Source: a virus
IMG/VR virus record: IMGVR_UViG_3300020048_000042
Span: 32,001 to 96,000 of that record
Direction: 5' to 3' (one strand)
DNA: 64,000 nucleotides
Each line of letters starts with the position of its first letter. The first letter of the stretch is position 1. The notes under the pieces are model-generated. The model was given only the letters and a program-made list of their open reading frames with translations. It was not told where the DNA came from and did no database searches. Positions 52,688 through 59,918 of this stretch are shown here, piece by piece. The translations under genes were made by a program, and so were the position numbers.

Positions 52688-52948
52688 TTAAATGTTTTTT
52701 TTAAAACTCACTTTTATAAAATACTTTAAGGCATCCCAAAAAGATTTAGGAAAATAAATATTGTATAAGTAAATGGTTCTAGGAGCTACAATAAACCCTT
52801 TCTTTAGTTTTTGTGCATCTACGTGATGGTTATCTTTATAAATCCAACATAACCAATACTTTTTACTTTTTAATATTATTCTACCTTGTATAGGATACTT
52901 TTGAGCATCTTCTCTTTTTACACCTCTATAGTCATAAAATGTTCTCAT
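52688..52948 (-). CDS. Basic hypothetical protein
   Basis: 86-aa ORF. Confidence 0.45.
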   Translation of the reverse strand: MRTFYDYRGVKREDAQKYPIQGRIILKSKKYWLCWIYKDNHHVDAQKLKKGFIVAPRTIYLYNIYFPKSFWDALKYFIKVSFKKNI

Positions 52949-55468: not shown

Positions 55469-55767
55469 TGTTTTTACCAGTAAAGTTTTCTGACAAAGAT
55501 GGTAAGTCTTACTTTGAGCATATAAACATAGCTCATATTACGCGACTTTCTTTTGTCAATATTATGAATCCTGATGCAGGAACCAAAATCCATTTAAGAA
55601 CTGGAGAGGTATTAGTCACTCCAGTTCCTATGGATATTTTTCAAGGTGATGTTGAAGATTGTTTTAAATCGTCTACTGCTTTACTGATATACAGTGTAGT
55701 TGCTGAAAAGGCAAAGTACTTTATGCACGACGATGAAGACGCTCAAAATTCAGAATCAACTGAATAA
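55468..55767 (+). CDS. Hypothetical protein (YlzI/flagellar-FlbD-like small beta domain, tentative)
   Basis: HINIAHITRL...GTKIHL..GEVLV pattern; TAATG-coupled to the phosphoesterase. Confidence 0.45.
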   Translation: MFLPVKFSDKDGKSYFEHINIAHITRLSFVNIMNPDAGTKIHLRTGEVLVTPVPMDIFQGDVEDCFKSSTALLIYSVVAEKAKYFMHDDEDAQNSESTE

Positions 55768-55978
55768 CGTCTTCTTTATTTTCAAGTACTATTGAAGGCC
55801 AGTCCCAGTTGTGTACTTGCCATTTGTTGTCAATTATTGTATCACTATCATTTGAGATAAGTGATAATCCTTCTGTTATATCAAGATTATAATAGTGATA
55901 GTCAAAACCATTGTCTGAGTCTTTACTTAAAATCTCAACTTTTGTAAATCCTAGTTCAATCAGTTCTTGTTCTGTCAT
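55721..55978 (-). CDS. Hypothetical protein
   Basis: MTEQELIELGF start, 85 aa. Confidence 0.5.
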   Translation of the reverse strand: MTEQELIELGFTKVEILSKDSDNGFDYHYYNLDITEGLSLISNDSDTIIDNKWQVHNWDWPSIVLENKEDVIQLILNFERLHRRA

Positions 55979-58320: not shown

Positions 58321-58497
58321 CTAATTGTTAGTTTCTTCTGTTTTGTTATAGTTCTCTATCTTAACTACCTTATATCTATGACCATTCACTAAGGACTTGT
58401 AGTGCTTATTAGCGCAAATGATGCACATTGATATTGTTTTCTTTGGGCTTTTGAATGTAACTTTTACGTTACTTTTACCCCAACATTTACAGTTCAT
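58321..58497 (-). CDS. 58-aa Cys-containing protein MNCKCWGK... (not in ORF track)
   Basis: Hand translation; CxC and CxxC; overlaps the upstream stop. Confidence 0.45.
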   Translation of the reverse strand: MNCKCWGKSNVKVTFKSPKKTISMCIICANKHYKSLVNGHRYKVVKIENYNKTEETNN

Positions 58498-59054
58498 AAT
58501 CCTTTACGAATGTTCCTGTACTTTTTGCCATTTTGTAACTCATCAATACTCAAAGGTTGATAGCCAATTAAATGTGCATCAACATTATAGTACTTGTCAA
58601 GAGTTGGTTTAGGTTCACTGCCTTCATCCAGGTACTTATTATTCACAACAACTTCCTCAAGTCTATTTACATGGTGAATGTGAGCATGGATATTTCCACG
58701 ATAAAACTGTACCTCATTTGGGTGTATAGGTACATGTGTAATTATAAAACCTTTATAATCTACAGCACCTGCAACACCATCAACGTACATCATTAACTGT
58801 TTAACGTTCTGATGCTTGTCATGATTACCTAGTACTACAATCTTTCTTCCATTAAGTAGATCTAATTTGTAGTAATCATTTGGCTTTTCCATTGTGACAT
58901 CTCCAACAATGTAAGTTGTGTCTCGCTTACTGACAACCTTGTTCCACTCTGCAATAAGATGAGCGTCATGCTCTTCAGCATTATCCCATTTTCTATACTT
59001 TCCAATATTGGTATGTCCAAAGTGTAGACACCCAATGAATCTTACAATACTCAT
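58494..59054 (-). CDS. Calcineurin-like phosphoesterase (phage type)
   Basis: GCLHFGH, GDV, GNHD, THVP and HAHIH motifs. Confidence 0.82.
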   Translation of the reverse strand: MSIVRFIGCLHFGHTNIGKYRKWDNAEEHDAHLIAEWNKVVSKRDTTYIVGDVTMEKPNDYYKLDLLNGRKIVVLGNHDKHQNVKQLMMYVDGVAGAVDYKGFIITHVPIHPNEVQFYRGNIHAHIHHVNRLEEVVVNNKYLDEGSEPKPTLDKYYNVDAHLIGYQPLSIDELQNGKKYRNIRKGL

Positions 59055-59076: not shown

Positions 59077-59186
59077 TAGTCATGACAGGATTCAAACCTG
59101 TGACCTGAACCTGATGTATTGCATGCCATGGTAGGCTATCCTTTACATTTTCAGAGGTTCCGCTCTATCAGCTGAGCTACATGACT
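59077..59186 (-). tRNA. tRNA-like gene with expanded anticodon arm; reads as tRNA-Phe(GAA) if a 35-nt insert (59114-59148) is removed
   Basis: Acceptor AGTCATG/CATGACT plus discriminator A; D arm GCTC-AGCTGATA-GAGC; anticodon stem GAACCT/AGGTTC; variable AGGTC; T arm ACAGG-TTTGAAT-CCTGT; no encoded CCA. Confidence 0.75.
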
Positions 59187-59345
59187 TGAGGTTGAGAACC
59201 TCTGTGTTGTGAAAACATCATCCCCGTTATCACACGACCTTCATATCTCACATGAACAACACATTTGAAGGTTATTTCACTGCAACCTACAAGCGTTCCC
59301 TAACATCAGAGACCAATCTCACAAGTTTTAAATGGATGTGAGACC
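59187..59345 (-). ncRNA. Structured leader / candidate ncRNA upstream of the tRNA-like gene
   Basis: Perfect stems at 59317-23/59337-43 (7 bp), 59237-43/59266-72 (7 bp) and 59188-93/59197-202 (6 bp); no ORF. Confidence 0.45.
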
Positions 59346-59348
59346 ATA

Positions 59349-59918
59349 TTATCTAATCTTGGCCATCATTGCCTTAAGCTCTGCAGCTGTCTTGACGTTG
59401 ATGACTGTTAACCTGTTGACAGGTTTTGTAAATGACAAAGGTACTGTTGATACCATGTAATGCATGTTATGTTCAATATAAATCTCTTCTGGAGTAAAAC
59501 CAAATACTGCATCTCCATTAGTTCCATATGAACCATCTTCTGCAGGACTAGGTAATATAGCAGAACCTGCTGAATAATCACCATTAGGATCATCTACTAA
59601 TTGATCAGTATTAGTAAGCTGAGAATTTACAGAAGAAATCTTATTTACTTGATAGTAACCAATTGGATCTGAAACACCTTCTACAAATACATACATGTAA
59701 AAGGAAATTGTTCTATCATTCTGCAGCTTGAATCTCTTGATGAGATTATCACGCTCTAATGACCATGAAATCTTTGGAGCTGGTTGAATTGCGTTCAAAT
59801 CTCTCTGATTGATTTCTGTTCTTGCTTGCTCATCTAATGCAGATGTGTTGTCTGCTTTAGTACGACCACATGATGTTACTACAAACATCAATAATAAAAT
59901 TGCTAATAATTGTTTCAT
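59349..59918 (-). CDS. Lipoprotein of unknown function
   Basis: MKQLLAILLLMFVVTS-C signal; conserved-looking SLER.NL..R and P.P.EDGSYG.N motifs. Confidence 0.7.
   Translation of the reverse strand: MKQLLAILLLMFVVTSCGRTKADNTSALDEQARTEINQRDLNAIQPAPKISWSLERDNLIKRFKLQNDRTISFYMYVFVEGVSDPIGYYQVNKISSVNSQLTNTDQLVDDPNGDYSAGSAILPSPAEDGSYGTNGDAVFGFTPEEIYIEHNMHYMVSTVPLSFTKPVNRLTVINVKTAAELKAMMAKIR

Follow-up and report, generated by a model that had tools for sequence, protein, structure and literature searches.

A conserved 35-nt hairpin interrupts a tRNA-Phe(GAA)-like gene of a freshwater crAss-like phage between positions 37 and 38

The window, the whole 64,000-nt stretch of DNA that was analysed, comprises bases 32001-96000 of a 122,312-bp IMG/VR record with an estimated completeness of 97%, and its GC content is 34%. 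Within a co-directional string of minus-strand genes, between two ORFs, lies a tRNA-Phe(GAA)-like gene that is interrupted in the anticodon loop by a short hairpin (Table 1). The gene is the sole Rfam match of the 64-kb window and the single tRNA match of the 122-kb phage genome. The downstream ORF encodes a metallophosphoesterase, and the protein encoded upstream matched neither Pfam nor PHROGs. A structured non-coding leader lies between that upstream ORF and the tRNA, and a small hairpin one base from the tRNA 5' end may be a processing or terminator element.

The genome is that of a freshwater crAss-like phage. Its major capsid protein belongs to the crAss type (Pfam Crass_capsid, E 4.3e-33), and its replication genes encode a family-A polymerase, a DnaB-type helicase, a primase, a Sak4-like protein and a ribonucleotide reductase. 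All relatives of the polymerase are from bacteriophages, and the runs in which the region occurs are of aquatic and mainly freshwater origin. Two giant ORFs in the window are probably candidates for the crAss-type block of virion RNA polymerase or tail genes (cf. PMC7886860). The hosts known for crAss-like phages belong to the Bacteroidota (PMC7886860), so that this gene has no archaeal or eukaryotic splicing context available to it.

Table 1 Features of the interrupted tRNA locus and of related loci. Positions are those of the window unless a contig is named.
Feature	Position	Strand	Evidence or remark
Interrupted tRNA-Phe(GAA)-like gene, 110 nt	59077..59186	-	Rfam RF00005, ARAGORN -i, cloverleaf MFE
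5' exon: acceptor 5' strand, D arm, G26, GAACCU, loop CUGAAA (C32 U33 G34 A35 A36 A37)	59149..59186	-	
Insert: closed imperfect hairpin between A37 and C38, 35 nt	59114..59148	-	
3' exon: C38, AGGUUC, variable loop AGGUC, T arm, acceptor 3' strand, A73	59077..59113	-	
Metallophosphoesterase, 186 aa, downstream gene	58494..59054	-	phrog_547 E 9e-38, weak Pfam Metallophos
Small hairpin GAGGUU-CUC-AACCUC	59188..59202	-	sequence
Structured leader, ~85 nt, non-coding	59262..59348	-	conservation, covariation
Upstream gene, 189-aa protein	59349..59918	-	95% identical in L002
Giant ORF, 4137 aa	2335-14748	+	
Giant ORF, 2027 aa	15334-21417	+	
ORF common only to carriers among six genomes	52688-52948		
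ORF common only to carriers among six genomes	55721-55978		
Leader copy	L146:7596-7682		
Leader copy	L147:11756-11846		
Leader copy	L148:2567-2657		
Leader copy	L149		L149 = L002 contig
Leader copy	L150		
tmRNA beside leader	L146:7683-8006	-	85 bits
Permuted tmRNA beside leader	L148:3075-3335	+	57 bits
tRNA-like gene, 137 nt	L002:2843-2979	+	RF00005 29.5 bits, CCA encoded
Cluster of at least 5 tRNA or tRNA-like genes	L053:12357-13875		also in L107 and L132
Ordinary tRNA-Arg(UCU) in L013-type slot, example from L314-L343	L319:7367-7441		acceptor like that of the interrupted gene

The RF00005 model matched the gene with 51.2 bits over model positions 1-71 (E 4.6e-08 for the whole 64-kb window, threshold 29). 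ARAGORN called no tRNA here at default settings and, when run with -i, called a tRNA-Phe(GAA) with a 35-nt intron, the excised piece being the insert of Table 1. The acceptor stem is AGUCAUG/CAUGACU, the D arm has the stem GCUC/GAGC and the loop AGCUGAUA, and the T arm has the stem ACAGG/CCUGU and the loop UUUGAAU, which carries U56. Nearly all of the tRNA core is present (U8, A14, G15/C48, G18/U55, G22/G46, G26/A44, U54/A58, G53/C61 and the discriminator A73), and CCA is not encoded. The GAA anticodon and A73 are constant across homologues, three of which have the D arm GCUCAGUUGGUAGAGC, a sequence typical of bacterial tRNA-Phe. The full 110-nt RNA was predicted to fold with a minimum free energy of -32.9 kcal/mol (z -2.3) into a cloverleaf in which the insert forms a hairpin.

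As encoded, the gene does not have an uninterrupted anticodon loop of 7 nt above a 5-bp stem, and its loop region is 43 nt long. The preliminary description, made from the sequence, had reported a tRNA-Phe-like gene with four paired arms, an oversized anticodon loop and a 35-nt insert at 37/38; the Rfam tRNA match and the ARAGORN -i call of a tRNA-Phe confirm this, and the arms read from the sequence pair as described. Removal of the insert leaves a 7-nt loop, C-U-GAA-A-C, that has U33 and a purine at position 37 and sits on a perfect flanking stem; in a reading by hand, no other choice of exon ends placed U33 on the standard frame. The spliced stem had been described as the 5-bp AACCT/AGGTT, but this missed a pair: with G26 and the variable loop AGGUC placed as in the standard frame, the stem is GAACCU/AGGUUC, 6 bp, one above the canonical number. 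A spliced RNA would therefore measure 75 nt without CCA, compared to the usual 73. The spliced anticodon arm can alternatively be read as a 9-nt loop on a 5-bp stem.

The insert consists of an AUGUA/UACAU closing helix, AA/AA and G.G internal loops, a bulged A, a GCC/GGC helix and a 6-nt terminal loop, and the exact pairing of its ends noted previously recurs as the closing helix of the predicted fold. In the unspliced RNA, the foot of the hairpin is a 6x1 internal loop made up of the seven bases of the anticodon loop. In the minimum free energy structure G34 pairs with C38 and A35 with the last insert base, a U, while A36, A37 and the first insert A form a 3-nt bulge. This bulge sits 5' of a 4-bp helix, and the 3' junction of the insert lies within a continuous helix; because the strand opposite the bulge has none, the structure is not a bulge-helix-bulge. 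The earlier statement that no canonical bulge-helix-bulge could be built thus agrees with the fold, and the EndA family was not found in the genome. Kink-turn, loop E and T-loop motifs were also fitted to the hairpin by hand, and none fits.

Archaeal and eukaryotic tRNA introns at 37/38 are removed by the EndA/Sen endonuclease together with RtcB or Trl1 (PMC4090602). The insert resembles them in its site, its similar length and its pairing with anticodon bases (G34:C38, A35:U); it differs in having no bulge-helix-bulge, a bacterial host and no EndA family in the phage. Group I introns also interrupt anticodon loops of bacterial and phage tRNAs, but are ~200 nt or longer and built on a P1-P9 core (PMC3984707). 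The insert shares with them the anticodon loop of a bacterial-type tRNA, yet has only 35 nt and no Intron_gpI match, and searches of the window with the Rfam ribozyme and intron families gave no match at the gathering threshold or at E<=1, in keeping with the earlier view that it is far too short for a group I intron. A minimal self-cleaving and self-ligating RNA, or a tRNA body that itself acts as the catalyst, would fit the fact that so small and irregular a hairpin is strictly conserved in sequence, as expected of a catalytic core. We consider such self-removal the least probable of all the explanations, and scarcely credible: no ribozyme family in Rfam matched, guanosine-binding or P1-like features cannot be built, and every self-splicing RNA known to us is longer than 35 nt.

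Pattern scans recovered further copies of the interrupted gene, eight from viral contigs and two from metagenome contigs, and seven distinct sequences were obtained. In an alignment to the cloverleaf plus hairpin, 99% of cells pair. Three pairs of the acceptor stem have changed on both sides and still pair, a result that none of 500 shuffles reached. Among the seven distinct sequences 17 of the 110 columns vary, with 13 in the 75 exon columns, 4 in the 6 of the hairpin loop and none in the 29 of the hairpin stem, which, with its internal loops, is the most constrained part of the gene. The confinement of all 4 insert changes to the terminal loop has a chance of ~3e-4 by our own arithmetic, for a sample of few independent lineages. 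The 5' exon is unchanged from position 26 onward, and the anticodon arm and insert stem are together at least as conserved as the rest of the gene and far more so than the acceptor stem. Two additional changes were seen in metagenome contigs, each in a single contig of low depth: one in the loop, and one C-to-U by which a hairpin G:C pair becomes G:U.

Some homologues depart from perfect pairing. A C.A mismatch occurs in the anticodon stem of two distinct sequences, which come from three contigs, and one of the two also has G19.A56. At 19:56 the seven sequences have A:U in four cases, G:U in two and G:A in one. The preliminary description had called the A19:U56 pair a compensated elbow and had read it as a sign of selection on the L-shape. 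The window does have this pair, yet G:U and G:A in other homologues weaken the argument drawn from it, and selection on the RNA is indicated by other signs instead. The compensatory acceptor pairs, the constant insert stem and the retention of the gene between phages at 49% polymerase identity indicate that the RNA, insert included, is under selection. The check proposed earlier, covariation versus random decay among homologues, came out in favour of the former, and the pattern of variation argues against neutral decay, for the few independent lineages sampled.

These observations bear directly on the notion of a dead tRNA gene that is decaying after the insertion of a 35-bp palindrome, for instance a REP- or MITE-like one. 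The insert is indeed an imperfect DNA palindrome, the gene is dispensable in that close relatives do not have it, and some copies have the elbow and anticodon-stem mismatches. Nevertheless, dead DNA is purged quickly from phage genomes, and a decaying gene would hardly show compensatory acceptor changes, keep its insert stem constant over seven distinct sequences or be common to phages whose polymerases are 49% identical. Nor was a second copy of the insert found in the phage genome, or any copy outside this tRNA in the viral and genome collections scanned. We regard a dead gene as highly improbable. The insert was also considered as a mobile DNA repeat or a mimic of a CRISPR repeat; one genome for each of 185,579 species gave just one match, by chance, in a Pseudomonadales MAG, where it lies inside other sequence with no tRNA nearby.

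The distribution of the gene is patchy. It is the lone tRNA in four near-complete genomes, three of which are distant from the window phage (capsid 76-77% identity, polymerase 49%). Between the carrier groups the tRNA has ~90% nucleotide identity, and this conservation is limited to the 110 nt, the flanks and neighbours being different; in the distant carriers the gene lies ~8 kb off its syntenic place. The closest complete relative of the window phage (G018, capsid 93%) has no tRNA at all, and two other closer complete relatives (G019 and G023) have other tRNAs and not the interrupted gene. No DNA similarity to three closer complete genomes was found in the tRNA region. Because only the 110 nt are alike, the flanks differ and the location is shifted, these comparisons indicate that the interrupted gene is an accessory RNA gene, one that either moves or is retained as a bare unit in a hypervariable region. 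A pattern for an intron-less allele, made of the D stem and the anticodon stem and loop, returned just interrupted copies and chance metagenome matches; a T-arm pattern was too generic and chiefly returned tRNA-Arg.

The position of the gene between two ORFs of a co-directional string, with a small hairpin just upstream, could suggest that its acceptor/T-arm half serves as a punctuation element, a signal for RNase P and RNase Z to cut between the flanking mRNAs, with the anticodon domain as a passenger. The related elements in L002 and L053, described below, keep the top half of the tRNA while their middles are degenerate, which would suit this explanation. However, a passenger should drift, and the anticodon arm and insert stem are far better conserved than the acceptor stem. 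The full set of D-arm and variable-loop tertiary bases is likewise retained, and movement as a bare 110-nt unit implies no tie to particular flanking genes. A punctuation role is accordingly improbable in our judgement.

Related phages place other tRNA genes in the same slot. Upstream of the metallophosphoesterase gene, where the flank was examined in the loci of 11 relatives, a tRNA or tRNA-like gene was present in three and none in the rest. The contents of this window-type slot are a tRNA-Arg with a tRNA-Leu (L009 and L011), the interrupted gene (window), the 137-nt tRNA-like gene (L002) or nothing. A second type of slot (L013-type) lies 2.63 kb upstream of a family of 86-aa ORFs; an ordinary tRNA-Arg(UCU) fills it in 13 loci, and the interrupted gene does so in 5. 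Its flanks are similar, and the two genes share a related acceptor, (A/G)GUCC.., and A73. This likeness of the acceptors suggests either replacement of one cassette by another or descent through a swap of the anticodon arm.

Other tRNA-like genes of these phages, which occupy this slot or neighbouring ones, are aberrant in the middle. The L002 gene, whose flanking proteins are 87-95% identical to those of the window, has intact acceptor and T arms and a disordered D/anticodon region. Four genes of the L053 cluster share the acceptor (A/G)GUCAGG/CCUGACU-A and stand beside one ordinary 74-nt tRNA; in these four the Rfam model skips the anticodon arm, where 30-42 nt are found instead of 17. One gene of the cluster lies behind a hairpin of the window's upstream type, and a further one is followed by the same 3' flank as the L013-type interrupted tRNA. 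Since the L002 and L053 genes lack a normal anticodon arm, decoding is not a given for this family of genes. In one freshwater metagenome contig (run X3), window positions 59123-59167 are joined to 59347-59426 through a variant junction, where 24 nt replace the leader together with the initial 19 nt of the tRNA. The 5' part of this contig, AGUCAGG-UA-ACUC-AAUGG, has an L053-type acceptor and a D loop with G18 G19, and a window-type anticodon arm and insert follow. This variant hints at modular exchange among these tRNA genes.

Small structured elements recur beside them. The GAGGUU-type hairpin also precedes the related tRNA-like gene in L053, L107 and L132, in the last as the compensatory variant GAGGA..UCCUC. 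Just upstream of several odd tRNA-like genes in L053, L148 and L150 we observed a different hairpin, CU(U/A)GGAAAGAC(A/U)AG, which may be a processing signal. The leader is ~95% identical in L002 despite the different tRNA cassette behind it, contains two covarying pairs and occurs in five other viral contigs beside tRNA, tRNA-like or tmRNA genes. It gave no match in Rfam and could be a promoter/leader or a small structured RNA of phage non-coding RNA clusters. In two of these contigs a phage-encoded tmRNA, permuted in one case, lies beside the leader.

The preliminary description had suggested searching the genome for an endonuclease and an RtcB or Rnl ligase, and this search was negative for each family. 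RtcB and RNA_ligase (Rnl2-type) were absent from all four near-complete carrier genomes, and RNA_lig_T4_1 (Rnl1-type) and tRNA_int_endo (EndA, PF01974) were absent from the window genome. Comparison of ~55 ORFs with Pfam or PHROGs gave proteins of replication and nucleotide metabolism, PD-(D/E)XK, MoxR/VWA and metallophosphoesterase proteins, and no RNA ligase, kinase or other RNA-repair enzyme. The nearest enzyme candidates are the metallophosphoesterase adjacent to the slot and the PD-(D/E)XK nucleases, neither with a specific link to the interrupted tRNA. RtcB was present in Bacteroides thetaiotaomicron, which was included as a control. Any removal of the insert would have to be carried out by host enzymes or by unrecognised core proteins of the phage. 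Two ORFs are common only to carrier genomes among the six compared (Table 1), and neither family was retained as a partner: the first is near the interrupted tRNA in only 5 of 50 loci, and the second occurs in complete genomes without it. One metatranscriptome run yielded a single contig (58691-58841), which lies inside the metallophosphoesterase gene and is uninformative on expression or splicing of the tRNA.

The closest precedent comes from the Lak megaphages, for which "enigmatic" highly conserved tRNA introns, tRNA-Phe(GAA) included, were described together with the statement that phage tRNA introns had not been reported previously (Devoto et al. 2019, PMC6784885). Those inserts measure 79-114 nt, contain an inner T-arm-like module, GGUUCGAnUCC, and have no Rfam hit (Table S6 of PMC6784885). 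Like the 35-nt insert, they belong to phages of Bacteroidota, lie in the anticodon loop next to the anticodon, match no Rfam family or ribozyme, are identical or almost so across distant samples, have tRNA-Phe(GAA) as a carrier and are removed by a mechanism that is unexplained. They differ in length and in their tRNA-like module, the insert described here being a plain hairpin with no T-loop, and in their carrier, a 540-kb megaphage as opposed to a 122-kb freshwater crAss-like phage. A further difference is that our pattern scans gave no intron-less allele of the interrupted tRNA-Phe. A short hairpin intron in a phage tRNA was not found described in the literature, and a large survey of crAss-like phages, which used tRNAscan in bacterial mode, reports just group I introns and inteins in protein genes. 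Since tRNA finders in bacterial mode miss the gene, surveys of crAss-like tRNAs run on such settings undercount genes of this kind.

We tentatively favour the reading in which the gene is an accessory phage tRNA-Phe(GAA) with a small intron that is removed by proteins. It is preferred because removal of the hairpin restores a textbook anticodon loop, the tRNA core is complete and the slot is shared with ordinary tRNAs. Both this reading and its main rival had been offered in the preliminary description, as an unknown splicing route that depends on proteins and as an unspliced tRNA mimic or decoy. The body keeps nearly all core bases, the three compensatory acceptor pairs and the constant insert stem are consistent with this reading, and the gene persists as the lone tRNA of four near-complete genomes, between phages at 49% polymerase identity. 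The occupation of the slot by a tRNA-Arg(UCU), or by a tRNA-Arg and a tRNA-Leu, in relatives points the same way, as do the Lak introns and the presence of RtcB in B. thetaiotaomicron. Against it, the ligase and endonuclease families had no match in the carrier genomes in which each was sought, the two carrier-shared ORFs failed the wider co-occurrence test, and we know of no bacterial or phage pathway for tRNA introns that are neither bulge-helix-bulge nor ribozyme. The 6-bp anticodon stem is non-canonical, and the C.A stem mismatch in two of seven sequences, the G19.A56 in one, the failure of the L002 and L053 genes to form a normal anticodon arm and the lack of any tRNA in the closest complete relative also count against splicing.

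According to this splicing model, the tRNA would be transcribed along with the neighbouring minus-strand genes, and its ends would be made by host RNase P, 3' trimming and the CCA-adding enzyme. The insert would fold as a closed hairpin with the future anticodon loop as the 6x1 internal loop at its foot, where a sequence-specific endoribonuclease would cut at A37|A and U|C38. Cleavage of this kind would explain why the stem and internal loops are constant while the terminal loop is free to vary. The halves would then be joined by a host RNA ligase, for which RtcB is the obvious candidate in Bacteroidota, to give a 75-nt tRNA-Phe with a 6-bp anticodon stem and the predicted junction ..CCUCUGAAA-CAGGUUC.. 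or ..CUGAAAA-AGGUUC... The product could supply Phe decoding during infection, possibly when the host tRNA-Phe is depleted or attacked. Accessory phage tRNAs are known to stand in for host tRNAs that defence nucleases have attacked (PMC10264068; PARIS/AriB, PMC12409363). Like those, the interrupted gene is a lone, patchily distributed tRNA of a variable region, and it swaps with tRNA-Arg(UCU) in its slot; however, they are uninterrupted and differ from the host tRNA by point changes in the anticodon loop, whereas the interrupted gene carries an insert, and a nuclease of its host directed at tRNA-Phe would be hypothetical.

The main rival, on account of the constant hairpin, the 6-bp stem, the stem and elbow mismatches and the aberrant relatives, is an unspliced tRNA-like molecule that never decodes. 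Its hairpin, perhaps together with exposed GAA/AAA bases, would bind or decoy a host factor, such as an anticodon nuclease, some other defence protein aimed at tRNAs or an enzyme of tRNA modification, and the tRNA body would provide RNase P/RNase Z processing, CCA addition and stability. The insert stem as the best-conserved part of the gene, the tolerance of anticodon-stem and elbow mismatches in some lineages, an extra base pair that is odd for a decoder and the failure to find splicing enzymes in the carrier genomes searched all speak for it. The accessory region around the gene, made of small ORFs, is also hypervariable and shares no DNA similarity even with close relatives, and such regions are the usual site of counter-defence genes; the tRNA-like genes of related phages, with intact acceptor, D and T arms and aberrant middles, fit as well. 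Defences that target tRNAs, and phage tRNA countermeasures to them, are documented (PMC10264068, PMC12409363), and the human protein SAMD9 is an anticodon nuclease specific for tRNA-Phe (PMC10246899).

An unspliced decoy nevertheless leaves the restored 7-nt Phe loop, with U33 and A37, and the full tertiary core without a direct reason. It has no known partner, it would occupy a slot otherwise filled by ordinary decoding tRNAs, and its hairpin was matched only by chance in the scan of one genome per species. Plant mitochondrial t-elements and the stable RNAs C and D of T4 are tRNA-shaped RNAs that need not decode. They resemble the L002 and L053 genes, in contrast to the window gene, which has a complete cloverleaf and its tightest constraint in the anticodon arm and insert. 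On balance we consider the unspliced decoy less likely than splicing, while still the rival to be taken most seriously.

The element is real, selected and unusual. In the textbook view, as we know it, bacteria and phages interrupt tRNA genes with self-splicing group I introns only, and to our knowledge conserved non-ribozyme inserts in phage tRNAs have been reported once, in the Lak phages in 2019, and have stayed unexplained since. The 35-nt plain hairpin is a much smaller example, with a stem under selection, from a different and abundant order of phages. It is possible, though we hold this with less confidence than splicing of the gene itself, that Bacteroidota or crAss-like phages own a protein-dependent form of tRNA splicing without a bulge-helix-bulge or a ribozyme, in which a hairpin of defined sequence at 37/38 is cut at its foot and the exons are resealed, probably by RtcB, with the 35-nt intron as a minimal natural substrate. 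The same machinery may also serve the longer Lak-type introns, or these may constitute another class. If the insert is spliced, the gene would offer a compact substrate for finding a bacterial pair of tRNA-splicing endonuclease and ligase; if it is not, the gene would be a natural tRNA scaffold that displays a functional hairpin, most likely in the conflict between phage and host.
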